A stretch of DNA of 32,234 bases, taken from an uncultured archaeon (GTDB lineage: Archaea; Asgardarchaeota; Thorarchaeia; Thorarchaeales; Thorarchaeaceae). The stretch is from positions 1 through 32,234 of the forward strand of contig CAZLEV010000023.1 in the NCBI GenBank assembly GCA_964558645.1, in the 5' to 3' direction. A program made the position numbers and the translations under genes. This document shows, piece after piece, positions 3,787-18,538 of this stretch; position 1 is the first letter of the stretch; each line of letters starts with the position of its first letter. Below the pieces are notes generated by a model, which was not told where the DNA came from, did no database searches, and was given only the letters and a program-made list of their open reading frames with translations.

Positions 3787-4038
3787 TTCAGAGAGAAGGC
3801 TGTTTGCACGTGTTCTCACCATATCATCTATGCTGTTCAGCAGGAGTTGACGACGGGAAAAGGGCTAGGCCTATTCGATGAGATTCTTCGTCTCCAGCAG
3901 GAGGTGACAAAGTTCCCTGATTGCACCGTGGCCTCCATTGCACTCGCACACGTAGATGGAGGTTCTCTTCACAACATCCGATGCGTCTGCGGGACATGCC
4001 CCGAGGTCCACCATCTTGATGCATTCAAGATCATCTAG
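3787..4038 (+). pseudogene. Cys/His-rich putative zinc-binding ORF lacking a clean start (remnant, frameshifted or read-through extension)
   Basis: Open frame FREKAVCTCSHHIIY...FPDC...CVCGTCPEVHH directly after, and in frame with, TGA 3784-3786. The first in-frame start is TTG 3847, which lies downstream of the first CxC-HH motif. Confidence 0.35.
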
Positions 4039-4790
4039 ATTGTCACCTACGAACGGGGTTTTAGAGAGGATTAGGTAGTCGACTCGATGGATACGCTTGT
4101 ACTCCGAATAACAGCAATCGGTCAGTTAGTGTTTCAAGGATTTCTATCGTTGCGGTCCAGAACCGATTCTTCTATGATTTGGTCGATGAATCATTGTATG
4201 CTAGTCCCTTCAGCGTTGATGCTGTTTCTCTGGGAACCCTGCATCTAGCACCGCATTGAAGAAAAGGCTATACGTCGCTTTCTTAGACTGGGCACATATC
4301 TCTCACTATCATGCCTTCTCCCACTTCATATGTGGAGAATGAACCGTTCCGGTTGTTCCATACACGATACACATGCTCTCTCCTGCGGGCACATACCTTA
4401 GACTACAGCGGATAGCATTCCATCCAGCATGAAGAGAGAACTCAGGCCTCCCGACTCCAGTAACCCGGCAGCAGTCAGGATGAATGCATCGGAATTATCA
4501 GATGAAGAGGGCAACAGGAAGTCAGAGATACAAAACTCGGAGTAGGATGCCTCGGCCAGCACAGGATACCCCGCCAGAGTGGTCTTGATGTGTCTGGTGC
4601 CGCGGTATGCTTGAAGGCTCTAACCGAGATAAGGACACCGTCATCCGATTAGCCTTTTCTCGGGCTTGGAGTTGTCATTAGTTCCGCGAGAATACCATTT
4701 CTTTAAATACCGTTCTTACAGAAGTGCCAGAACAGGAAAGGTCCCCATAAAGAATAGTTTCTCTGTATTCCGTCAGAATCAGAGGTGGAA

Positions 4791-5711
4791 ATGATGAAGC
4801 CATTGCGAGTCCTATATCTCTGGAATACTGCGGGTGCTTTGACGCCTGTGGCCGATTGGTTACTCGATCATGGACATCAAGCTAGGATACTCATGAGTAC
4901 AGAATATGACCTCTTCGGAAGCACATCGTGTTCTGATGCGGCGCTCATGGTGGATTCGGTCATCTCATACTATCTGGAGGTCCTCCGACACCTTCTCGTC
5001 TTCCAGCCAACGCATGTTCATATCAATGCAAACATTCCCTCGCTGATATTGGCTCGACTGCTGAAACCGACCACTCCCATTGTTTTCCAGTACCATGGAA
5101 TTGAGGTTCGCTATCGCGATAGGGTCCATCCCGAGATGGCATTGGCAGATAGAGTGATTGTATCCACGCCGGATCTGAGGGATTATGGTAGATGGTACGA
5201 TCGTCCAGTTTCTAAGATGTTCTACTATCGTGGAGGTAGAGAGCCAAATACAGCGGTTATGTTCTATGCTGACTACTTCATGGAGGATCTCCGCAGAGAG
5301 GCTAAGCAATGGTGTGAAGAGCGAAACATTGACCTCAGAATCATCCAGCGGGGCTTAGATCCTATCATCCCTTATGCAGAGATGCCTCAATTCCTATCGA
5401 AGTTTGAGTATTTCATGGACTTCAAAGGATATGGAGACCCCGAGGCGATCAGTCGACTGGCGCTTGAGGCCATTGCCTGTGGGTGCAAGATTGTCAGTGA
5501 CACCGATCCGACACATGTAATCGATGACTACGATTTGCCCAAGCCTGAGGTTTACTACGAACTCTACACTGATATGAAACGCCCTCCATTATCTATTAAT
5601 CGTCAGGTCATCGCTCTCCGTGGACTCATGAAGTGGGGTCTTGGCTCGCTCGCTCCGATCCCCCGACCTCCGCCCCAGCGTCAGTCATCGAATTTCCAGG
5701 AGAGGATTTGA
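4791..5711 (+). CDS. GT-B fold glycosyltransferase (GT4-like)
   Basis: LRVLYLWNTAG N-terminus, FQYHG, IPYAEMPQFLSKFEY and ALEAIACGCKIV (ExxACG motif); SD GAGGTG 4782-4787 before ATG 4791. Confidence 0.75.
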   Translation: MMKPLRVLYLWNTAGALTPVADWLLDHGHQARILMSTEYDLFGSTSCSDAALMVDSVISYYLEVLRHLLVFQPTHVHINANIPSLILARLLKPTTPIVFQYHGIEVRYRDRVHPEMALADRVIVSTPDLRDYGRWYDRPVSKMFYYRGGREPNTAVMFYADYFMEDLRREAKQWCEERNIDLRIIQRGLDPIIPYAEMPQFLSKFEYFMDFKGYGDPEAISRLALEAIACGCKIVSDTDPTHVIDDYDLPKPEVYYELYTDMKRPPLSINRQVIALRGLMKWGLGSLAPIPRPPPQRQSSNFQERI

Positions 5712-5759
5712 CATTCAGTTGAGAACCGATACGGCATCCGGCTATGCGGAGGTTTCCCG

Positions 5760-6899
5760 TTGAAACTCCTTGTTCTGGGACCATATGGTGAGACCACCAG
5801 TGGGCCCTCACGTGTTCTAACTGAGGTAGTTGAGCGTCTGCCCTCGGGATTCGAAGTTCTCGTTCTCTCGCCGCGAAGGCGATCTGAATACTGGCGATCG
5901 GATGAAGATAGAGGGAACGTGAGAATCAGATTTCAGCCCTGTGGCCAAATCCCTGGATTGCCTATGTCACATCAGTGGCTAGAGATTCTTAGAACCAACC
6001 TAAAGCTTGCTGCTCTTGCATTCAACCCTGATTTGGTATGGACTCACAGCACGACACTCTTCACGGCCTATGCTCATAGCAGAATCCGGACCACTCCTGC
6101 TGTTGCCACAGTGCACGGCGTATTCGGGGACTACTACCGAGCCGAAGCAGAACAGAGGTCAAGTGGGCTCTTGACCAATCTATTCGTCATGCAGAACTAC
6201 CATTTGCAGAGATATGAGTTCAAGAATGCCGCCCATCTGACAACATACTCCGAATACTTGAAGAGCCTGATTCAAGAGGTGACCCCATCTGCAGAAGTCA
6301 CTGTCATTCCTAATGGTGTCAATGTGGAGCGCTTTAGACCATCGGTAGATGACCGTGAGAGAGTCATCCTGTATGTGGGCCGAATGGCGAGAATCAAAGG
6401 AGTACATGTTCTCATCAGGAGCATGAAATGGGTGACTGAGAAGCATCCTGAGTGGCGATTATGGCTGGTTGGGGGCGCATTCGACCAACCTCGGTCCTTC
6501 TTTGAAGACCACATGACCCCAACAACACGGAAACAGATTGAATTCCTCGGCCAGATTCCAAACGAGGAGCTTCCCGCCCTTCTCAGTCGCGCAGGCATTT
6601 TTGTTATGCCAACTCTGCGGGATGGCTTTGAGATAGCACTGATGGAGGCGATGGCCAGCGGGATTCCATGCGTCACGACTGGTGCTTACGAGCGCACGGA
6701 GCTCTATGGTGGCTACGCTGAAGCTGTTCCTCCTGGAGATGCACAATCTCTGGGTAGATGTCTGAATGAGGTAATCGGCCACTATGACGAATACACAGCA
6801 GACTCCGCCGTGGCAAGGAGAGTGTCCAGAGCGAGGGAGTTCTCTTGGTCCAAGATCGCAGATAGATATGCAGAGCTATTCAGGAGAGTGATTGAATGA
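5760..6899 (+). CDS. Glycosyltransferase family 4
   Basis: VATVHG, VIPNGVNVERF, ILYVGRMARIKG, DGFEIALMEAMASGIPCVTT and FSWSKIA; SD GGAGGT before TTG. Confidence 0.92.
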   Translation: MKLLVLGPYGETTSGPSRVLTEVVERLPSGFEVLVLSPRRRSEYWRSDEDRGNVRIRFQPCGQIPGLPMSHQWLEILRTNLKLAALAFNPDLVWTHSTTLFTAYAHSRIRTTPAVATVHGVFGDYYRAEAEQRSSGLLTNLFVMQNYHLQRYEFKNAAHLTTYSEYLKSLIQEVTPSAEVTVIPNGVNVERFRPSVDDRERVILYVGRMARIKGVHVLIRSMKWVTEKHPEWRLWLVGGAFDQPRSFFEDHMTPTTRKQIEFLGQIPNEELPALLSRAGIFVMPTLRDGFEIALMEAMASGIPCVTTGAYERTELYGGYAEAVPPGDAQSLGRCLNEVIGHYDEYTADSAVARRVSRAREFSWSKIADRYAELFRRVIE

Positions 6900-7681
6900 C
6901 CAATGTGGCGATTATCATTCCCGTCTTTTACCGTGAACACCTCAAAAAGGCGATCCGCTCGGTCTTGTTAAACGATTGTGATGTTATACTCGTCAACGAC
7001 TCCGATGTGCCGTTGACATATGAGCACCCTCGAGTGACCGTCATCGACAATGGAATGAATCTAGGTGTCGGTATTTCCCGCAATCGAGGAGTTAGAGCAG
7101 CCCTTGATGTCGGATATGATCTTATTGGATTTGTCGATTCTGATAGTGTTCTGTCGCCGACTTGGCGAAGGGAATGCGAAAAGACTCTCCAAGACCCATC
7201 TATCATCGGCGTATCAGGACTCGCACTGAATCCCAATCAACCGTCCACAATCGCCAGAGTGAAGTATGTTCTGAAGGACTATAGCCGACGCAAGTCCATT
7301 CCGTTTCAGATAGACTGCTCACTCTTCAAGCGAGAGGCCTTCGCTCATGCTAGTTTCGGAAAAAGGCGAATTGCTGAAGACGCATTCTTCCTGCGTCAAA
7401 TAGACAGGAGTAGGCTGGCGGTCAATGAGGATACAATCTCGTATCATCACGAAGTGGACTCTGTGAGCGATTACTTCAGAAAGGAAATCGTGGGGGCACT
7501 GTATTCTCTCTCAGAGCCATTGAGTGTGGCACGCAGCTTCTTCCTGACTCCTTATACCTGCATGAAGATGGTTCTGCGGAAAGACCGACATCCTGACTAT
7601 CCGATTGCGGCCCTTATCTGGCTGATTCGTCAGGTGGCTTGGAATCTTGCATATGTTCTGGGTAGGATGGCTGATATCTGA
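6896..7681 (+). CDS. Glycosyltransferase family 2 (GT-A)
   Basis: IIIPVF, VILVND, NLGVGISRNRG, FVDSD (DxD) and IAED; ATGA overlap with the upstream GT4. Confidence 0.85.
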   Translation: MTNVAIIIPVFYREHLKKAIRSVLLNDCDVILVNDSDVPLTYEHPRVTVIDNGMNLGVGISRNRGVRAALDVGYDLIGFVDSDSVLSPTWRRECEKTLQDPSIIGVSGLALNPNQPSTIARVKYVLKDYSRRKSIPFQIDCSLFKREAFAHASFGKRRIAEDAFFLRQIDRSRLAVNEDTISYHHEVDSVSDYFRKEIVGALYSLSEPLSVARSFFLTPYTCMKMVLRKDRHPDYPIAALIWLIRQVAWNLAYVLGRMADI

Positions 7682-7696
7682 CTCACATGCTTGAAT

Positions 7697-8917
7697 TCAT
7701 CTGAAACCTAGCAGTTGAAGCAGATACTCATAGACCCGTTCGGATGCACCAGGCTTCTGGTACTCATTAATCAGCCGATTCACCTGTCTTCGTTGCTCAG
7801 CGTATTCATCGGATTCCCACAATGCCTTCTCTATGGCTCTTTGAAATACGGTGAATGTGTACACCTTCTCCCCGGGACACCAGAAATCATAGTCTGGATA
7901 GCATAGACTCTCTCTCTCAAGGAAGTCGTCCAAGTCATATGGAACGAAGATCATGGGTCGATCCAGTAGCATGAAGTCGCTTTGGATGGAGGAATAGTCA
8001 TTGATGAGCAGGTCCACTTCAGGAAGAACTTCGGCTATGTCCGGTTGTAACGCGTAGGGGAGGTTCCGAATATGGTGTGTTTCCTTGACCTCTCCCCCGT
8101 CTCCTTCGTGGGAACGGATGAGCATGAGAATCCTCTTCCCCGCACACCATTCTTCTAGTGCATCTGTCGTGAAATCCTCAAAGGGAAAGAACCTGACAGT
8201 GCCTTCAGTTCTCCAAGTCGTTGCATATAATAGAACCTTGTCATATTCAGGCAGACTAGCATACAATGTGGGTATTTTCTCTTTCCACCTCGACTCATCC
8301 AAGAGATAATCACACCTAGGATATCCTAAAGATAGGATTTGAGTTGGGTGAAGGGCGTGTGCATACGCTCTCATGTATGAGTCCAGACGTGAACATGTGA
8401 GAAAGGCAGTAGTGTACTGCATCCAATGCTCTGAGTCTTGGAGCATCTCTCTTGTGAACTTCTTCGAGGCATACCCATCTGCTTTGGGCCCGTGCCCATG
8501 CCAGAGATGTATCACATACTTCCTCTTGGATGGCCGCAGGTTTCCCATGTCCCCCAAGCTGTTTGTCATGAGAATAGTCTTTGCTCTAAGAAAGAGGTGA
8601 ACTGTACCCAATGATGGTCGTCGTATACACCTCTCGTACGGACTATCGGTATGATGATTCAAGAAGAAGTAGCACCGAAACGGATGACCTTCTCGATGCG
8701 CGATATATTCGAATAGTGCCTTCGAGTTTCCGGACGGATACGACCCACCTCGCGAGCCGAAGATTAGAATCGTCGAGTCCTTTGGCCATATATAGTCTAG
8801 AAATTGGATAATCCGTCGGAACCCTTTGGTGAGTATCTCTCTGAAGCGCATTCTCATTCTCTCCGTTTCTGAGGTGTCCTTTGGTTGGTCAGGCTGACTC
8901 GCATCTTGTTCCAGCAT
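7697..8917 (-). CDS. CDP-glycerol/polyol:glycerophosphate transferase family (TagB/TagF-like)
   Basis: Family motifs LWHGHGPK, GYPRCD, LYATTWR, IRSH, LINDYSS and DFMLLDRPMIF. Confidence 0.88.
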   Translation of the reverse strand: MLEQDASQPDQPKDTSETERMRMRFREILTKGFRRIIQFLDYIWPKDSTILIFGSRGGSYPSGNSKALFEYIAHREGHPFRCYFFLNHHTDSPYERCIRRPSLGTVHLFLRAKTILMTNSLGDMGNLRPSKRKYVIHLWHGHGPKADGYASKKFTREMLQDSEHWMQYTTAFLTCSRLDSYMRAYAHALHPTQILSLGYPRCDYLLDESRWKEKIPTLYASLPEYDKVLLYATTWRTEGTVRFFPFEDFTTDALEEWCAGKRILMLIRSHEGDGGEVKETHHIRNLPYALQPDIAEVLPEVDLLINDYSSIQSDFMLLDRPMIFVPYDLDDFLERESLCYPDYDFWCPGEKVYTFTVFQRAIEKALWESDEYAEQRRQVNRLINEYQKPGASERVYEYLLQLLGFR

Positions 8918-8933
8918 TATAAGGTTTCCAAAG

Positions 8934-9689
8934 TCAGGCCCAATAGCCCTCTTCGAGGAGCTCAGCGGCCCAATGCAGATCTGTGGGGGTATCGATGTCC
9001 TTCCATATAGCCCCCTCGACTGGCTTTACATAGAATCCCCGCTCCCTACTCGACTGCTTGTGGACGTATTCGCTGAGTGATCTCTTGTCTTTTGGGAGGT
9101 CAGCTATGATTTCAAAAGCATCTTGAGTCAGTTTGAAGATGCCCATGTCAATCATGTTCCACTGCGAGATATTCTTTCCGATTTTGACTAGCCTATGATT
9201 CTTCTCAGAGAGGATCTTGGTTGCATCGGCCAGATCCAGATAGTCCGGAATGCCTTCATTTCGATATTGTGCGCAGACATAGGGCGTGTTGACTGTGTCA
9301 GTAACGACACATTTTCGGTAGGTTGCAGGAGAGAAGAGGTGGTCTGACATCTGGAGGATAAACTCCTCATTAGACAGGAGGCCATCGCACGCTAGCAATG
9401 TGGCCGCATTTCCATCTTGCCAATCCTCTGATTTGACCACTACCACATTATCATAGAGATGGCCTTGGCTCTCAACATAGTCAACCATAGTTTCATAGTG
9501 GATGCCTACGGATATGAAGAGCCTGAAGTCCCCTCTTAGACAGACATCAATCGTCGAAACAATGTGATCGAGAATGGTCTTGTTCTCCAGCTCCAATAGG
9601 GTCTTGGGAATTTCTTGGTGTATTTCTTCAAGTCTTATTCCCAGACCCCCTGCGACAATAACAATCTCTTCCATCAGCATCGACACCAT
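8934..9689 (-). CDS. CTP:polyol/inositol-phosphate cytidylyltransferase-like NTP transferase (IPCT/LicC-like)
   Basis: VAGGLGIRL...PKTLL, FILQMSDH, DLADATKI, KIGK...IDMGIF and WKDIDTPTDL. Confidence 0.8.
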   Translation of the reverse strand: MVSMLMEEIVIVAGGLGIRLEEIHQEIPKTLLELENKTILDHIVSTIDVCLRGDFRLFISVGIHYETMVDYVESQGHLYDNVVVVKSEDWQDGNAATLLACDGLLSNEEFILQMSDHLFSPATYRKCVVTDTVNTPYVCAQYRNEGIPDYLDLADATKILSEKNHRLVKIGKNISQWNMIDMGIFKLTQDAFEIIADLPKDKRSLSEYVHKQSSRERGFYVKPVEGAIWKDIDTPTDLHWAAELLEEGYWA

Positions 9690-9770
9690 TATTTCTCGTG
9701 ATGTGCCCAGTAAGATGCACAGCTTGACTTCAGGATATTAGCTTTCCTTTCTCTGAGAACGAATTCATGG

Positions 9771-10316
9771 TTATTGAAGCCCGTCGCTTCGGTCTGATCG
9801 TGTGGTTTCATCAGACTCACTGTATATGTCAGAAAAGGGATGTTTCGCTACATACTCCTCACGCAGTTCAATCGCCCTGTCGATGTCTTCTCTGATTTCT
9901 GGCCGGAAGCCCTCGAGTTTGTTATAGTACTCTCTAGTCTCTGCAATGGCGGTCTTGTCTAGGTTGAACTCGTCTGCCAACTGCTCACTCACATCGAGCA
10001 TGGTTGCATAGATGGGCAACCAGAGTATTCTATCAATTGGACGTGGAACATATTGGAACGGGTTACGTTCCTGTGTCACTTCATGAGACGGTGCCCACAT
10101 GACGAATACTCTGTCATAGATATAGCCCCCTACTAGAAAGAAGACAAAGAGAGTCACTGAGAACGCAATCGGCCCCCAAGCACCGAGCCCGGCGAATATT
10201 GGGATATATCCAAAGTACGCATATGCCAACATGAATGTGCTGAAGAATAAACCCCAGATCCCTCTGATTTGTACAAGTCTCCATTGTTGTTTCATCAACC
10301 ATTTTCTTAGTCCCAT
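9771..10316 (-). CDS. Hypothetical 2-TM membrane protein (one copy of the GxxYD..W..ERNP domain)
   Basis: 181-aa ORF with two hydrophobic segments and SD GAGGATG; paralogous to both halves of the upstream ORF. Confidence 0.8.
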   Translation of the reverse strand: MGLRKWLMKQQWRLVQIRGIWGLFFSTFMLAYAYFGYIPIFAGLGAWGPIAFSVTLFVFFLVGGYIYDRVFVMWAPSHEVTQERNPFQYVPRPIDRILWLPIYATMLDVSEQLADEFNLDKTAIAETREYYNKLEGFRPEIREDIDRAIELREEYVAKHPFSDIYSESDETTRSDRSDGLQ

Positions 10317-10319
10317 CTC

Positions 10320-11432
10320 TCATCCTCTCACTGTTTCAAGTCGCTCATCTAAAGGTTCGAAAACTGCTCCCAATTCAGACCTCAACCTCTGTGCCTCGAA
10401 TAGGTCTTCATTTCGTGTGACGCTCAGTTGCAGGTACTCGTGAAGATACAATGCGAGCCTATCAATCACTATCGTATCCATATCATGGCTCACAAAAAGC
10501 TCTCGTAGAACCGCGAAGAATGTATGGTAGATAGGCAGCAGTAATGCATAGTTTCTGGGTTCAGGAACATAGCTATAGGGATTACGCTCGATATTCACGA
10601 TTTGTTCTGGTGACCAGAGTACTAGCTTTCTGTCATAATACCAGCCCGCAATGGCCATGCCGACGTACATCGGTACAGACAACATCAGTATCCCTCGAAG
10701 CAAGTAATCCAGCGGAACAAGGTCGCCGTAGGGGGTGGAAACCACGACATTCGGGTAAAGAAGTGTAACGAAGAGTGCTCCAAAGATAAGGACATCCTGG
10801 GCCAGCCCGGAAAAAGACTGGATATAATTGACCCTGAGGACCTCGAGCTGAAATCTCTTCTTTGCCTTGGCGCCTAGGCTTGCCTCTTTATTGGATGCCT
10901 TCCTTGGACGATTGAACGGGTGTTGTTCAAGGAACTCCTCAGCGAGCTCTTCTGCTGAGAAGAGATCATCCTTATTCTCAGGATTCCTCCGGAAGAAATC
11001 ATCCAAGTACACACTGAGGTCCAGTATGGTCTCAGCCGGTAGGTTCAGCTTCTTGAACAACCTGTGCAGTGTGTCAAAGATAACATAGGCTGCGGGATAG
11101 TCGATTGCTAGCGCTCTGAAATCCGGCACATATGAGTAAGGGTTCCGCTCCAGTCCCACCTGCACCGACTCTTTCCATAGTCGGGCTCTCTCGTCGTACG
11201 CCCAGCCAATGATAAGAAACACAAAGATCAGAATCACCGCTAATACCAACGCACCGATTAGACCCAGCGAGTCTAGTATTGGGACATATGGTGAGTAGAA
11301 TCTTCCAAGTGTCAGCATGCCGAAAGCGAGGGCTAGAAGAGTCCTGATACTGCCAATGCGCCAATATTGTTTCATCAGCCACTTAGATTTCGTCAACCGG
11401 CGACCGCCTCTGTCTTGCTTCGATGAAGTCAT
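10320..11432 (-). CDS. Hypothetical 4-TM membrane protein (tandem duplication of the GWxYD..W..ERNPYSYVP domain)
   Basis: 370 aa from ATG 11432; longer starts overlap the divergent GT2 gene or its leader. ERNPYSYVP occurs twice, and there is a 3-nt gap to the next gene. Confidence 0.8.
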   Translation of the reverse strand: MTSSKQDRGGRRLTKSKWLMKQYWRIGSIRTLLALAFGMLTLGRFYSPYVPILDSLGLIGALVLAVILIFVFLIIGWAYDERARLWKESVQVGLERNPYSYVPDFRALAIDYPAAYVIFDTLHRLFKKLNLPAETILDLSVYLDDFFRRNPENKDDLFSAEELAEEFLEQHPFNRPRKASNKEASLGAKAKKRFQLEVLRVNYIQSFSGLAQDVLIFGALFVTLLYPNVVVSTPYGDLVPLDYLLRGILMLSVPMYVGMAIAGWYYDRKLVLWSPEQIVNIERNPYSYVPEPRNYALLLPIYHTFFAVLRELFVSHDMDTIVIDRLALYLHEYLQLSVTRNEDLFEAQRLRSELGAVFEPLDERLETVRG

Positions 11433-11519
11433 AATATAACGCTTCCCACGATTCAGCGGTTGTCCCTCCATAGAGAACCGATTATAAGGCACGAGTTCAG
11501 GGAGGTAGACGAGCACTCT

Positions 11520-12467
11520 ATGACAGGTGACACCCAGAGCGATGCATATGTCCCTTTCCATGAGTACTGCAGATACTGCACTACCCGTTGTACTGCACCC
11601 CCATCGACTTCATCTCAATACGTGTTGGTCACTAACGTATGGAATGAGGAACCAAGGATAGAGCGGGCCTTCGAGTGGATGATGCACCAATCACGAAAAC
11701 CCTTGGTCTGGCTGTGGATTGACGACGGGTCTACAGACGGCACATACGAGGAAATCAAGCACCTGTCAGAAGAACACCCCGAACTCAAGGTTTGGGTTGA
11801 GCGTATGCCCATGAAAGAACAGGGCAATCTCAATACAATCGGAAATGCTTACACAGAACACATGCCCGGTTTCATCAAGAGGCTAAGGGGGCAGAGCGTA
11901 GACTATTATGCAATCCAAGATGTCGGCACGCAGCCATGTCCCAACTACTATGCCCGTATCATGCATCTGATGGATGAGCATCCAGAGATTGGAGCGTCGT
12001 CAGGCTATGTCATTGGAGAGGAGCGGGCACGAGAATCCGGCATGCCCATGGGAGACTGTAAGGTGACTCGCTGGGAGATTATTCGTGAGATTGAGGAATA
12101 TTGGCCTCTATCCCCTGACACCTTCGTGAATATCAAGACGCTCAAGAGAGGATGCCGCTTGAAGATCTGGGCCATCCCTGTTTTTCAAGATGAGCCCTCC
12201 TTCGGCACCACTGCACGGGGTATGTTCTATCAGGGTCAACTGAACTACTTCGTGGGCAGACCCTTTCTTGGTGTTCTACTCAGGGCTCTCCGCAGATTAT
12301 TTCTTCGTCGACATGGGACTGATATGCTCAGGGGGTATCTCTACGAACGGGAGAAGCAGACATGGCGGTGCGAGGATCCTGATGTGCTTGAGTTCTATGG
12401 CCACGGACAATCACCTCTGTGGGTAATATGGAACTTGCTCAAAACACGTGGCCGCTATTCTGATTAG
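11520..12467 (+). CDS. Glycosyltransferase family 2 (GT-A) with N-terminal CxxCxxxC
   Basis: YVLVTNVWNEE and WLWIDDGSTDGT; SD GGAGGT at ~11501 before ATG 11520. Confidence 0.85.
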   Translation: MTGDTQSDAYVPFHEYCRYCTTRCTAPPSTSSQYVLVTNVWNEEPRIERAFEWMMHQSRKPLVWLWIDDGSTDGTYEEIKHLSEEHPELKVWVERMPMKEQGNLNTIGNAYTEHMPGFIKRLRGQSVDYYAIQDVGTQPCPNYYARIMHLMDEHPEIGASSGYVIGEERARESGMPMGDCKVTRWEIIREIEEYWPLSPDTFVNIKTLKRGCRLKIWAIPVFQDEPSFGTTARGMFYQGQLNYFVGRPFLGVLLRALRRLFLRRHGTDMLRGYLYEREKQTWRCEDPDVLEFYGHGQSPLWVIWNLLKTRGRYSD

Positions 12468-16030: not shown

Positions 16031-17044
16031 TCAGTATGGCGATCTCATGAGGGACGGAAGAACCTGTGGCACTGACAGGAACAGTCCAATAAGTCGATGT
16101 CCGATTTTGTATGCGAGAGATTCATTGTCGGGGAGAATCAGGTCTGCAATCCTTCCTCCCTTGAAGAAGTAACTCTGCCCTGGAATCAGCCGCCCCTCCA
16201 GAATTGGTGCGGCGAAGATCTCAGTGAGGCGGAGGATGAGCGTTCTGACCACCCGTTGTCTTACCTGTCGTGCAAGGCGTCGTGCCCGCAGCAGCAACGA
16301 CATGATCTTCTTTGCCCTGAGCGTTGCGTATCCTGCGTCTAGGATGCGGTCAAGGAAACATCTATCGTCGGGACCGAGCCCGACGCCGAGAGCATCCATC
16401 TCCTCCCTGGTCACATTGATATAGCCCGCATCGTAGTCGTTCTTGATATCCAGCAGGTCATCGAGCATGCCTAGTCCCATGCCAAGTGTGTATGAAAGCT
16501 CGTCAATACAGCCACCCAAGTCGTAGTCTGACAGGATGAAATAGAGTTTGAAGAACGACCTCGCCTTCTTGTAGAGAAGCCTATCCATATCACTCTGTGA
16601 CATGAGAACTCCCTTTCTCTCTACGTCACCCCACGCACTCTGGTAGAGATCCATGACCACCTCAATTGCCTCGCCACCATAGAATTCTCTCTCGTTCTCG
16701 AAGAACTGAGAGAGCCATCTGTGCCGCAGTGGTGCTGTCCTGTCAAGCTGGAGGTCTCCCGCAAGACCCCTCTCCACCACATTTCTCTCGCCTTCCAGCA
16801 TCGCGACGGCTTGCGCCTTGGTCAGTCCGGGGGCATCGAGCATATCATCAAAATTACGGATGTAGCCCCATGCTAGCGACCATGTTTCTGAGCCTAGAGG
16901 TTCAGGGACAAGCTGTGATGCATAGGTCAAGAAGTCTCGTTGTCGCAGATAGCTTCGTGCCAGATTCACTGTCGACGTGTAAACAGAAGATGCTCGTAAG
17001 GCGGGAATTTTGTCTTGCATGGGATGTCCATGTAAGGTATTCAC
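16031..17044 (-). CDS. Class I isoprenoid-biosynthesis fold protein (squalene/phytoene-synthase-like)
   Basis: YIRNFDDMLD and LGMGLGMLDDLLDIKNDYDAGYINV Asp-rich motifs in a predicted all-helical protein; alternative start ATG 17020. Confidence 0.75.
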   Translation of the reverse strand: MNTLHGHPMQDKIPALRASSVYTSTVNLARSYLRQRDFLTYASQLVPEPLGSETWSLAWGYIRNFDDMLDAPGLTKAQAVAMLEGERNVVERGLAGDLQLDRTAPLRHRWLSQFFENEREFYGGEAIEVVMDLYQSAWGDVERKGVLMSQSDMDRLLYKKARSFFKLYFILSDYDLGGCIDELSYTLGMGLGMLDDLLDIKNDYDAGYINVTREEMDALGVGLGPDDRCFLDRILDAGYATLRAKKIMSLLLRARRLARQVRQRVVRTLILRLTEIFAAPILEGRLIPGQSYFFKGGRIADLILPDNESLAYKIGHRLIGLFLSVPQVLPSLMRSPY

Positions 17045-17123: not shown

Positions 17124-17636
17124 CTATTGACCGAGCCTTGCCCGTGCAGTCCGCCGAATCTCTTCAATCGCCTCAATAATGCCTTCGTAGTGCTCTACTA
17201 GTTCGTCCTCTTTGAGTTGGATGGCGTGTGCCTTTGCTTGGTCCAGCAGGGCTATCACTTCAGTGGAGTTTCTCAGAATCTCCTGGTCGAGCTTTCGTTT
17301 CTTCTTGTCAGCAAGATTTTCGTCATATTCTCCTACCGTCTTGGCAAGCTTTGTTCGCTCTTTGGCGATCTTCTTCTCAAGTTTACGGATATGCTTCTTG
17401 TCTGCATCCGCCTCAACCACAGGCACCTCTCTATACTCATCCTTCTTCTCGAGGCCGAGTATTCTCTTCAGGTCACTTCTGAAGAAGCTGACAATCAGGC
17501 CAACGAAAACCGCGAAGACGCCTGCGATGAAACCCCCGATGCTTGATAATTGATAGGCAATGATGCTAATAACTGTGAGAATGACAATGAGCCCAAGCAG
17601 ACCTCTCCAAGGGATGTTCGATGCTTTATCGTTCAA
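17124..17636 (-). CDS. Hypothetical protein, 2 N-terminal TM helices plus charged helical/coiled-coil domain
   Basis: TTG 17636 with SD GGGAG at 17644-17648; hydrophobic hairpin followed by K/E-rich helices. Confidence 0.75.
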   Translation of the reverse strand: MNDKASNIPWRGLLGLIVILTVISIIAYQLSSIGGFIAGVFAVFVGLIVSFFRSDLKRILGLEKKDEYREVPVVEADADKKHIRKLEKKIAKERTKLAKTVGEYDENLADKKKRKLDQEILRNSTEVIALLDQAKAHAIQLKEDELVEHYEGIIEAIEEIRRTARARLGQ

Positions 17637-17842
17637 CGTTGTTCTCCCACTTGACGAGCGGAGGGCGTATTGCATTTAAGTTTCTTCTGAAATGCCTTTA
17701 GGTATGTGGGCACTGCGCCCGCTCTCTCTGTATCTCAATAGTTAGGCCATCTGTCAATGTGGAACCATGCAGGCACGATACCGTTCAGTAACGACCATTC
17801 AGATAGTTTCACTGACTCCTTCTCCAATCCATCTCCTATCCC

Positions 17843-18538
17843 TCAGTTTGTTTTCAGGAAGAGGATTTCCACCAGAACGGAGAGGGCTGGTGGAATCAGT
17901 CCTGCCGTCAGAACTACGAAGGAGAAGACTCCCATCCCCATAGCAGCAAGAACAGTGACGACAGGTACTGTTGTCCACATGGCGGTATTCGCGAATCCAG
18001 ACTGCTGTCCGAGGACCGGGAACAAGGCTCTCCGTTGGGCCATCGACAGAGCAAAGAATCCCAGGATGAGCATCCCGATGCCCAGACCTAGGGACTGAAC
18101 ACTGCTGATCGCATTCAAATCTATGAGAACCGCTATATCTCCGAAAGGATGCAGCCCACCGATGACCAGATATCCTGCGGCATTCATCAGACACCAGAAT
18201 GCAAGCCAGACACAGGGCACAGTGAGCCAGCAGTCCGGTCTTCTTGCTAGTAGGTAGACCACTAGAACGAGAGTCAAGGCACCCGTGGCAATGATTCCGC
18301 CAGCATAGAGCCAGGCTCTCTGCCACACCTCCAACGAAGGAATTGCCCACTGTATGTGTGAGAGTTCATACGGCCACAGGACACTGATATACACAGATTT
18401 GATTCTTCCACCAAAGAGCATGACAAAGAGCCCATGGCCTATCACTTCATGTACGAACTCAGACACCAGTTTCATGAAGAATGCCGAGAGTAGGAAGAGC
18501 ACCACCAGACGCTCTCTGACACTTACCTTCTTCTGCAT
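17843..18538 (-). CDS. Multi-pass membrane protein, M50/M50B-like zinc metallopeptidase
   Basis: VHEVIGHG in TM1, AGG motif, later GD motif and ~6 TM segments. Confidence 0.7.
   Translation of the reverse strand: MQKKVSVRERLVVLFLLSAFFMKLVSEFVHEVIGHGLFVMLFGGRIKSVYISVLWPYELSHIQWAIPSLEVWQRAWLYAGGIIATGALTLVLVVYLLARRPDCWLTVPCVWLAFWCLMNAAGYLVIGGLHPFGDIAVLIDLNAISSVQSLGLGIGMLILGFFALSMAQRRALFPVLGQQSGFANTAMWTTVPVVTVLAAMGMGVFSFVVLTAGLIPPALSVLVEILFLKTN

Follow-up and report, generated by a model that had tools for sequence, protein, structure and literature searches.

The question raised by this locus is what a transferase of the TagF family, with relatives that prime wall teichoic acids in Bacillus and Staphylococcus, would be doing in an uncultured archaeon that has no peptidoglycan. 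The original prediction, made from the letters of the DNA, answered with a teichoic-acid-like polymer of polyol phosphates, and we find that interpretation partly supported. We lean towards reading the stretch as one form of a surface-glycan island that varies among Thorarchaeota, in which the TagF-like enzyme and the cytidylyltransferase (CT) next to it would add a phosphodiester-linked group to a glycan, most likely a dolichol-linked oligosaccharide for N-glycosylation. The enzyme pair is of the teichoic type and lies in an Asgard surface-sugar island, beside a conserved, uncharacterised three-module membrane pair.

Organization of the locus

The window is the whole stretch of DNA that was analyzed, 32,234 nt of the Thorarchaeota contig CAZLEV010000023.1, and the locus studied here is 4791-12467 (Table 1). 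The existence of the cluster, its order, its gaps and the families of its genes are confirmed. By ORF coordinates the gaps in the four-gene minus-strand run are exactly 3, 81 and 16 nt, as predicted, and 15 nt separate the ends of the convergent operons. The run is enclosed, again as predicted, by a divergent GT2 and a GT4-like/GT4/GT2 trio; the Pfam match of the GT4-like protein is under the cut-off and that of the divergent GT2 is marginal. The host had been called Asgard-like, and the homologues are indeed named Candidatus Thorarchaeota. Among the eight genes, a Pfam search turns up no flippase, ABC exporter, Wzy or oligosaccharyltransferase, in agreement with what had been seen before.

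Table 1. Genes of the locus, with positions in the window
Gene product	Position	Strand	Evidence or remarks
GT4-like protein, ~306 aa (308-aa ORF)	4791..5711 (ORF 4785/4791-5711)	+	First gene of the convergent GT trio; weak N-terminal GT-B half match, Glyco_transf_4 22 bits (cut-off 28.5), E=1.8e-4
GT4-family (GT-B) glycosyltransferase, 379 aa	5760..6899	+	PF13692, 91 bits; PF00534, 86 bits
GT2-family glycosyltransferase, 261 aa	6896..7681	+	PF00535, 43 bits, over cut-off
TagF/TagB-family CDP-alcohol phosphotransferase, single GT-B domain, 406 aa	7697..8917	-	PF04464, 182 bits (cut-off 22.1), profile positions 4-366 of 367
COG1213/IPCT-type cytidylyltransferase (CT), 251 aa	8934..9689	-	NF041135, 92 bits; PDB 4JD0
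Single-module membrane protein, 181 aa	9771..10316	-	2-TM hairpin, no Pfam/NCBIfam family
Double-module membrane protein, 370 aa from M44	10320..11432 (413-aa ORF to 11561)	-	Tandem duplicate of the module of the 181-aa protein
Divergent GT2-like glycosyltransferase, 335-aa ORF	11520..12467 (ORF from TTG 11460)	+	PF00535, 24.6 bits (cut-off 23.3)

The GT4-like protein likely starts with MMKPL at 4791 and the divergent GT2 probably at ATG 11520 rather than TTG 11460. An alignment with 10 orthologues puts the true start of the double-module protein probably at M44 (nt 11432), so the overlap with the divergent GT2 is gone. The intergenic stretch between these two divergent genes, 11433-11519, is AT-rich.

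Conservation in relatives

The transferase and the CT are adjacent in 7 of 7 loci from two Asgard families (f1, to which the window belongs, and f27). All five f1 genomes with the transferase have both genes beside the membrane pair, with the transferase no more than 3 kb from it. The full seven-gene layout of the window recurs in two genomes of another genus (G273 and G206); in two more (G231 and G006) the cluster is rearranged and its genes are still adjacent. The order double module, single module, CT, transferase is kept in three genera. Because it is conserved across genera, we take the cluster to be more than chance. Three glycosyltransferases are co-conserved with the transferase in three genomes. 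The GT4-like, GT4 and GT2 proteins of the trio keep their position in loci L024 and L025, and the GT4-like protein also has two copies in L026 and orthologues in L022 and L032-34. In 8 of 13 loci a homologue of the divergent GT2 is found no more than about 5 kb from the membrane pair.

The pair itself is commoner than the transferase. It is found in 26 of 77 f1 genomes, and 21 of the 26 have it without TagF, so the predicted conservation holds when read from the enzymes to the pair and fails when read the other way. Yet all ten of the pair-only loci that were inspected, out of these 21 genomes, are glycan islands. Six of them carry a nonulosonic-acid cassette and a different transferase. Genes of the pair-only loci include PseB, DegT, an acetyltransferase, a 2-epimerase, NeuB, a CMP-synthetase and a conserved soluble protein of 470-490 aa that is absent from the TagF genomes. 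One or other CDP/CMP-type transferase adjoins the pair in 11 of 12 well-covered loci. The alternative transferase also occurs without any membrane pair in five genomes, so the pair is not obligatory for such islands. Since the pair is the commoner element and is also present in glycan islands that lack TagF, we regard the transferase and CT as an accessory cassette within an island of varying content.

The transferase

The 406-aa protein is supported as a genuine member of the TagF family, both histidines being present. Its PDB matches include TarL 8VA1 (E=1e-17) and TagF 3L7I (E=1.3e-11), with the Gram-negative TagF-like capsule polymerase 8QOY at E=2.9e-7. The histidines seen earlier are confirmed: H140 (WHG) and H270 (RSH) align with the catalytic histidines of 3L7I and 8VA1, and both are invariant, together with the YA(T/P)T motif and DYSS, in seven Asgard orthologues. 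PF04464 genes are found in 60 of 301 Asgard genomes, so the presence of TagF is not new by itself. M21 and M23 are possible alternative starts.

The PF04464 match begins at residue 39, and neither Pfam nor NCBIfam finds a domain ahead of the GT-B fold. Characterized TagF-family polymerases carry an N-terminal domain; TarB/TagB and TarF do not, and they share with our protein a single membrane-associated GT-B domain of about 380-400 aa, a match to the Pfam family over its full length, the two invariant histidines and a CDP-activated donor made by a neighboring cytidylyltransferase (PMC10901376). The likeness has limits. The donor loop is WHGHGPK, that is HGP, where the primases have PL or G(A/S)L, and it is neither the glycerol (PL) nor the ribitol (GAF) signature of the family (PMC10901376). 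The partner is a COG1213/IPCT-type enzyme rather than TagD or TarI, and the locus has no LCP ligase and, by Pfam, neither a TagO/TagA-type starter nor a TagGH-type ABC exporter. All NCBIfam equivalog scores are far under their cut-offs, including the best, 84 bits to the catalytic region of TarL, a polymerase, and the 78 bits to TarF.

TagF-like enzymes can also add one phospho-X to a glycan. In the CDP-threonine pathway of Clostridioides difficile, the TagF-like FtaD puts N-methyl-phosphothreonine on the O-GlcNAc of flagellin (bioRxiv 10.64898/2026.02.12.704994). FtaB/FtaD, compared here by description, resembles our working model: a cytidylyltransferase and TagF-like cassette beside glycosyltransferases, and a single phosphodiester-linked non-sugar group on a protein glycan. 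The window's locus differs in having no FtaA- or FtaC-like genes; in the related locus L029, FkbM methyltransferases adjoin the cassette.

The cytidylyltransferase and its donor

The 251-aa protein is an NTP_transferase, and the cytidylyltransferase assignment stands as predicted. Among NCBIfam models it scores highest, 92 bits, against the IPCT half of IPCT/DIPPS (NF041135), with 58 bits for the next family. In the PDB it matches inositol-1-P cytidylyltransferase of T. maritima (4JD0, E=8e-18), 2XME (E=1.6e-13) and 6PD1 (E=4e-9), the last deposited as "Nucleotidyl transferase/aminotransferase, class V". The G-x-G-x-R-L...PK nucleotide-binding motif and the catalytic Asp of the IPCTs (Thermotoga, Archaeoglobus) and COG1213 enzymes (LicC, CpgD, Cj1416, the IPCT-related 6PD1) are conserved (PMC12275187), and R19, K29 and D116 line up with the catalytic Arg, Lys and Asp. 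Identity to the IPCTs is only about 28-35%, and the gene stands alone, paired with a TagF-like gene instead of DIPPS.

The donor is therefore expected to be a CDP-X, and inositol is the nearest match for X. This is where we part from the predicted polyol: members of the COG1213/IPCT/LicC/CpgD family activate inositol-P, phosphocholine, phosphoglutamine or phosphoglycerate (PMC12275187), so X need not be a polyol and cannot be read from family membership.

Alternative explanations

The polymer of the original prediction would be a poly(X-phosphate) or poly(glycosyl-X-phosphate), lipid-anchored and exported, with the membrane pair as scaffold or exporter. We know of no wall polymer in archaea of this group that could carry a teichoic acid. 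This and the missing exporter and starter count against such a product, as do the primase-like architecture, the low equivalog scores and the unfamiliar donor loop, and a long teichoic-type chain made by this enzyme is not favored. The idea still draws on family membership with both histidines, on TarL being the best NCBIfam match, on the three co-conserved glycosyltransferases and on the free hydroxyls that inositol or glycerol donors would leave for an extending chain. Bacterial TagF-like capsule polymerases do build poly(glycosyl-polyol-phosphate) through combined glycosyltransferase and TagF activities (PMC5974469, PMC10901376). Cps1B, Cps3D, Cps7D and Bcs3 of Gram-negative capsules likewise join TagF-like and glycosyltransferase functions in one cluster for phosphate-containing surface glycans, such as we propose here, but as large multi-domain fusions rather than small separate proteins, and with ABC-transporter export onto a Kdo-lipid anchor (PMC5974469). 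The size of the transferase cannot by itself rule out polymerization, since glycosyltransferases alternating with TagF could give a poly(glycosyl-X-phosphate). On balance we consider the polymer unlikely. A small molecule or lipid head group, with the TagF-like enzyme using CDP-inositol in place of DIPPS to give an inositol-phosphate solute or glycolipid, seems to us very improbable. Di-myo-inositol phosphate is a solute of hyperthermophiles, and these are sediment MAGs; the cassette always lies among glycosyltransferase and nucleotide-sugar genes. The attraction of the idea is that CT is most similar to IPCTs, which belong to the di-myo-inositol-phosphate pathway, that JGI annotates its next-nearest homologue as inositol-1-phosphate cytidylyltransferase, that Pfam finds no DIPPS-type partner in the locus, and that MIPS genes, which would supply inositol-1-P, are present in 5/5 TagF-bearing genomes. 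Against this, COG1213 is substrate-diverse (PMC12275187) and TagF-family enzymes are known only to act at membranes, with glycans or polyols as acceptors (PMC10901376).

The pair and the two enzymes could also be mere neighbors in a recombination-prone island, the pair serving some step general to the island, or having no role in glycans. The many pair-only genomes agree with this, and in G006 an epimerase on the opposite strand splits the pair from the transferase and CT, which in G293 occur without any module. The 81-nt gap before the CT gene holds a TATA-like "TAATAT", which suggests a separate promoter, and distant relatives of the module have mixed contexts. We nevertheless hold mere proximity to be quite unlikely given the adjacency in 5/5 family genomes, the gene order common to three genera and the presence of some CDP/CMP-type transferase beside the pair in 11 of the 12 well-covered loci. 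The association also recurs independently in f27, where a single-module relative in G263 (L027) lies directly upstream of the transferase. In G239 such a relative immediately precedes an NTP-transferase gene and genes for sugar modification.

The membrane pair

The "two novel membrane proteins" of the original prediction are novel in that they match no Pfam or NCBIfam family and resemble no fold in the PDB (for the 181-aa protein, Foldseek gives E>3 and VIA a Z of 7.0 or less), but they are not two kinds. The 181-aa protein matches both halves of the double-module protein (E=3e-25 and E=2.6e-14); by alignment they are paralogues, 2+1 copies of one 2-TM module, the longer being a tandem duplicate of the module in the shorter. 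The 181-aa protein combines a basic N-terminal helix with a 2-TM hairpin and the motif G(W/Y)xYD..W..ERNP(Y/F)xYVP; it also has a helical domain, about 90 aa long, that is predicted to lie in the cytoplasm. In an alignment of 33 modules, R, G, YD, W and Y are invariant. AF2 models are all helical for the single module (mean pLDDT 86.7) and 4-TM helical for the double (72.5). Together the pair would have 3 x 2 TM helices, with large helical domains in the cytoplasm and hardly any loops outside.

The 181-aa protein has 120 homologue clusters at identities of at least 49%, and all lineage-specific names among them are Thorarchaeota; a few clusters are otherwise named, Promethearchaeota and one "Candidatus Hydrothermota bacterium". 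Two distant single-module relatives occur in other archaea and lie outside any clear glycan context, which counts against our reading.

A proposed pathway

We believe the predicted anionic phosphodiester-linked glycan or glycolipid is a sound inference from the TagF histidines, the constant CT partner and the adjoining pair. The GT4-like, GT4, GT2 and divergent GT2 enzymes would assemble a lipid-carried oligosaccharide on the cytoplasmic side of the membrane. CT would turn CTP and a phospho-alcohol into CDP-X, with X nearest to myo-inositol, for which the MIPS genes could supply inositol-1-P, and glycerol, glycerate or an amino alcohol also possible. With H140 as base and H270 protonating CMP, the single-domain transferase would then pass X-phosphate to a sugar hydroxyl. 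The anionic substituent would be a cap or a short series of units, not a long chain of the teichoic kind, because 406 aa with nothing ahead of the GT-B fold resembles TarB/TarF and not the polymerases (PMC10901376). The cassette may be exchangeable, its place in sister genomes being taken by the nonulosonic-acid pathway and another putative CMP-dependent GT-B transferase.

The 2+1 modules may assemble into a pseudo-trimeric complex of six helices, with three helical domains in the cytoplasm, as the common membrane partner of the island. It might be a platform for the peripheral CDP/CMP-dependent transferase or for the lipid-linked acceptor, or might itself be the translocation step. Otherwise flipping and transfer would be provided in trans, and the same genome does have Wzx-like genes (contig 4) and AglB (contig 6). 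We favor an N-glycan context because Alg13/Alg14-like genes flank the island in relatives (L024-26, L032-33; not in this window). Wzx/Wzy-type O-antigen-like islands likewise have a membrane component amid variable glycosyltransferase and sugar-nucleotide genes, but the pair has no sequence or fold similarity to theirs and is built as 3 x 2 TM. Two sister islands, both from a single genus and on contigs that run past the transferase, have in place of the 2+1 pair a Wzx-like protein of 14-16 TM and a 9-TM protein.

A conserved island with a phosphotransferase cassette

The locus is real and conserved, a glycan island into which a CDP-alcohol phosphotransferase cassette is set, and the kind of system it represents is already known. 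Its unusual points are the enzyme for the donor and a family of membrane partners that is uncharacterised. The original prediction was of a teichoic-acid-like surface polymer; we find it partly supported, since there is a conserved cassette of this type in a glycan island, but the name teichoic acid is too strong for the evidence. The ORF map agrees exactly with the layout and gaps first read from the sequence. A trio of glycosyltransferase genes on the plus strand converges on a run of four genes on the minus strand with 15 nt between them, and the spacings within that run are 3, 81 and 16 nt. As had also been stated, there is no flippase, ABC exporter, Wzy or oligosaccharyltransferase among the locus genes by Pfam. 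Calling the host Asgard-like was right because homologues of the membrane protein, the cytidylyltransferase (CT) and the TagF-like protein (TagF below) are named Candidatus Thorarchaeota wherever a lineage-specific name is given.

Genes of the glycan locus in the window
Gene product	Coordinates	Strand	Assignment or source
GT4-like ORF, 308 aa	likely start 4791	+	ORF map
GT4, 379 aa	5760-6899	+	ORF map
GT2, 261 aa	6896-7681	+	ORF map
TagF-like, 406 aa	7697-8917	-	PF04464
CT, 251 aa	8934-9689	-	NTP-transferase
Single-module membrane protein, 181 aa	9771-10316	-	no family
Double-module membrane protein, 413-aa ORF	10320-11561	-	no family
GT2-like, divergent	11460/11520-12467	+	ORF map

In the 81-nt gap before CT (9690-9770, minus strand) a TATA-like 'AAAGCTAATATCC' precedes the ATG by about 50 nt. 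The two genes TagF and CT may have a promoter of their own, which would suit a separable cassette.

The transferase and its donor

The TagF-like protein matches PF04464, the TagF/TagB family of CDP-alcohol phosphotransferases of GT-B fold, at 182 bits against a cut-off of 22.1 and across profile positions 4-366 of 367. Its closest solved structures are TarL (8VA1, E=1e-17) and TagF (3L7I, E=1.3e-11), and the capsule polymerase Cps3D (8QOY) is also among them. The histidines that had been noticed at both expected motif positions (WHG, RSH) hold up well: H140 (LWHGH) and H270 (IRSHEG) align with the catalytic pairs H444/H584 of TagF and H300/H433 of TarL, and both are invariant across seven Asgard orthologues, as are YA(T/P)T and DYSS. 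In this family the two histidines are the base and the proton donor (PMC10901376).

Polymerases of the family have an extra N-terminal domain and the primases TarB and TarF do not (PMC10901376). The PF04464 match begins at residue 39 of 406, therefore the architecture is primase-like, and the domain that TagF, TarL and TarK carry ahead of the GT-B domain was not found in the window's protein. It falls far below every NCBIfam equivalog cut-off for TarL, TarF and TarB; with the TarL model it reaches 84 bits where the cut-off is 1000, and the alignment is confined to profile positions 272-558. Donor signatures lie just past the first histidine, PL for CDP-glycerol and GAF for CDP-ribitol (PMC10901376). 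Neither is present in the donor loop of the window's TagF, which reads WHG-H-G-P-K, and the orthologues have QGP, RPGL or (I/L)SF.

Judged by sequence, CT belongs to COG1213, a different family from the TagD/TarI type. Its top NCBIfam match, at 92 bits with the next family at 58, is the inositol-1-phosphate cytidylyltransferase (IPCT) half of IPCT/DIPPS (NF041135); the equivalog cut-off is 580 and the alignment covers the IPCT half only, so CT does not pass as an IPCT equivalog. No CDP-alcohol phosphatidyltransferase, the DIPPS partner or fusion, was found at the locus. The best structures are the inositol-1-phosphate cytidylyltransferases of T. maritima and A. fulgidus (4JD0, 2XME, 4MND), and the next is 6PD1, deposited as 'Nucleotidyl transferase/aminotransferase, class V'. 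R19, K29 and D116 of CT align with conserved residues of 4JD0, and an Arg, a Lys and an Asp are critical in the COG1213 fold, whose family substrates include phosphocholine, phosphoglutamine, phosphoglycerate and inositol phosphate (PMC12275187). Identity to the IPCTs is 28-35%, within a family of diverse substrates. Each of the five TagF-bearing genomes of the window's family has two MIPS-like genes. MIPS and the catalytic residues are permissive: they would be compatible with CDP-inositol and are not specific to it. CT is an unusual partner for a TagF, and the donor may be new.

The comparison with wall teichoic acid systems makes the difference plain. The tag/tar pathways use TagO/TagA-type initiation, a TagD/TarI-type cytidylyltransferase and the TagGH ABC exporter, and none of these is among the eight genes of the locus. 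The closest working analogues of the window's enzyme are TarB and TarF, TagF-like enzymes of single addition, and FtaD, which uses a CDP donor to place one phospho-amino-acid onto a protein glycan (bioRxiv 10.64898/2026.02.12.704994). Our full-text searches for teichoic-like chemistry in archaea and Asgard archaea found no paper describing such chemistry in the Asgard group.

Conservation across Asgard genomes

The presence of TagF in an Asgard genome is unsurprising by itself. PF04464 matches occur in 60 of the 301 Asgard genomes sampled, about a fifth, and public annotation already names them; the window's family has them in 5 of 77. In other Asgard families the matches are stronger and a TagD-like small cytidylyltransferase lies 6-11 kb off in three of the five genomes checked, therefore canonical CDP-glycerol sets seem to exist elsewhere in the phylum. 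Some genomes of the Asgard family f9 have TagF loci far richer than the window's, with 3-4 PF04464 matches per 7-14 kb stretch (e.g. G213:C10:327291-341394 and G152:C2:267013-274848), two of which share one open frame about 820 aa long. The window's clade is marked out by its pairing of TagF with a COG1213 enzyme and by the membrane module.

In the window's family 25 of the 76 other genomes have the module (26 of 77 counting the window's own), as a double and a single protein except in a few fragmentary assemblies. Two further families have it, one of them in a single genome and the other, f27, as single copies in 3 of 11. Conservation of the gene neighbourhood, which had been proposed as one check on the prediction, gives an answer in two parts. 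TagF and CT adjoin in all seven loci on the locus maps, and TagF lies no more than 3 kb from the membrane pair in every one of the five TagF-bearing family genomes. The pair, however, is often without TagF, which only 5 of the 26 pair-bearing genomes possess.

Arrangement varies around this core. In G273 and G206, genomes of another genus, the seven genes are laid out exactly as in the window. G231 has the double and single modules, CT, TagF and a gene like the window's divergent 335-aa GT2 (GT2_335) all on one strand, and in G006 TagF-CT is followed by an epimerase on the opposite strand and then by double-single. In f27 the single-module gene of G263 is directly upstream of TagF with CT convergent; G293 has TagF and CT and no module, as confirmed by HMM; and the module of G239 is directly upstream of an NTP-transferase, a sugar C-methyltransferase and RmlD. 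Agreement in the lengths given for the longest contigs suggests, as circumstantial evidence, that at least six further environmental contigs carry a membrane-pair gene plus TagF or CT.

The membrane pair

Each half of the long protein is similar to the 181-aa protein (E=3e-25 and E=2.6e-14), and the long gene probably starts at M44 (nt 11432), judging by an alignment of orthologues. An alignment of the window's three modules with 30 others shows a shared plan: a basic N-terminal helix, a hairpin of two TM helices joined on the outside by a very short loop, the motif G(W/Y)xYD...W...ERNP(Y/F)xYVP and a helical domain of about 90 aa. R13, G64, Y67, D68, W74 and Y89 are invariant in these 33 modules, and R13, D68 and W74 are still invariant when the alignment is widened to distant relatives. 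By the positive-inside rule, the termini and helical domains are probably cytoplasmic. AF2 models are confident and all-helical; their mean pLDDT is 86.7 (single protein) and 72.5 (double protein).

We found no Pfam, NCBIfam or named protein-atlas cluster for the modules, and the atlas gave unnamed archaeal clusters only. Fold searches with the model of the 181-aa protein returned generic helical matches (Foldseek against pdb, E>3; VIA-align against pdb_via_wide, Z no higher than 7.0). A Pfam match of the same protein to DUF6015 (E=0.009, no domain passing) is noise. A profile search of 1.84 billion protein representatives found 191 relatives, the double and single forms in Thorarchaeota and remoter single-module proteins of 150-220 aa in other archaea. 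Single-protein scans for distant relatives reached two loci, one in a metagenome and one in a 'Methanobacteriota archaeon', whose neighbourhoods are mixed and non-diagnostic.

Islands with the pair and without TagF

It might be objected that the membrane pair occurs mostly in unrelated contexts. This is not what we see: all ten of the TagF-less pair loci inspected lie in glycan islands, whose genes include GT2_335-like, GT4 and GT-C (PMT_2) glycosyltransferases, UDP-glucose dehydrogenase, pyruvyl transferase and sulfotransferase. Six of the ten hold a full nonulosonic-acid pathway (PseB-like, DegT, hexapeptide acetyltransferase, 2-epimerase, NeuB and CMP-synthetase), which is accompanied by a conserved soluble protein of 470-490 aa, here called the alternative protein. 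Among the relatives' islands that were mapped, both occur at L014, L016, L018 and L022, and also at L032-L033.

The alternative protein belongs to no Pfam family and contains the motifs QHG and LHP. A search of PDB profiles with it gave nothing, and Pfam gave DUF6716 only (E=0.03). Its hhalign alignment with TagF is weak (probability 26%, E=7e-4) and places both histidine motifs in register, which is suggestive of a remote homology that we do not claim. The protein is plausibly a CMP-nonulosonate transferase, a candidate new family in Thorarchaeota. Of 81 family genomes 20 have it, and the five with TagF all lack it; among the 26 pair-bearing genomes 15 have it and none has it together with TagF.

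A strict need of the alternative protein for the membrane pair is ruled out, and the pair is not obligatory, because five genomes hold the protein without any module. Two module-less islands run past the transferase, and in both the pair's place is taken by a Wzx-like protein with 14-16 TM helices and another protein with nine. In the pair-bearing islands no Wzx-like gene was found within about 8 kb. We regard this either-or pattern as a lead, a hint from few and related genomes that the pair has a role in a membrane step.

Variants with a sulfotransferase or a polysaccharide pyruvyl transferase are found at L016 13577-14611 and L022 5051-6229. The island seems to swap between ways of giving the glycan a negative charge. 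It would then be one island with exchangeable cassettes (phospho-alcohol, nonulosonic-acid, sulfate and pyruvate), which resembles O-antigen-like surface variation.

Inside a gene-poor stretch of the window (3787-4784), a stop-to-stop frame at 3871-4125 on the minus strand resembles the C-terminal third of a KdsC-type HAD phosphatase. It has no start codon and reads ...FVGDNLDDLECIKMVDLGACPADA...GGHGAIRELCHLLL... The frame looks like a decayed remnant at the edge of the island, and it would fit cassette turnover because sister islands hold nonulosonate genes.

Acceptor, export and significance

Alg13 and Alg14 carry out the second step in the synthesis of the N-glycan core, in its eukaryote-type form. 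Five relatives have Alg13/Alg14-like genes on the flank of the island, which points to a dolichol-linked N-glycan pathway. Split Alg13-like (Glyco_tran_28_C) and Alg14-like genes lie at L024 13425-14338, L025 1089-2023, L026 15901-16853 and L032 1919-2850. The steps missing from the window's locus can come in trans because AglB is encoded elsewhere in its genome, on contig 6, and Wzx-like genes lie on contig 4.

The Asgard archaea are the closest prokaryotic relatives of eukaryotes and, to our knowledge, almost nothing is known of their cell surface by experiment. In the Thorarchaeota a glycan, probably N-linked, appears to be decorated by a chemistry that is known from the teichoic acids, capsules and flagellin glycans of bacteria. 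A well-conserved, uncharacterised family is the membrane partner found most often in their islands, which makes it a candidate for a so far missing membrane step of glycan assembly in archaea.

These observations can be joined into one larger reading. The pair would be a new archaeal machine for glycan assembly, a six-helix pseudo-trimer that docks CDP- or CMP-dependent GT-B transferases (TagF-like or nonulosonate-type) and flips or exports a lipid-linked anionic glycan, the job of Wzx/Wzy in sister islands, and in the window the TagF-like enzyme would use CDP-inositol. Taken as a whole we think this is improbable, and we know of no TagF-family enzyme with CDP-inositol as its donor. If it were true, Asgard surface glycans would bear inositol-phosphate.

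About 5 kb downstream of the island the window has three successive minus-strand ORFs with no Pfam family (17843-18538, 16031-17044 and 17124-17675), one of which encodes a 231-aa protein with about six predicted TM helices.
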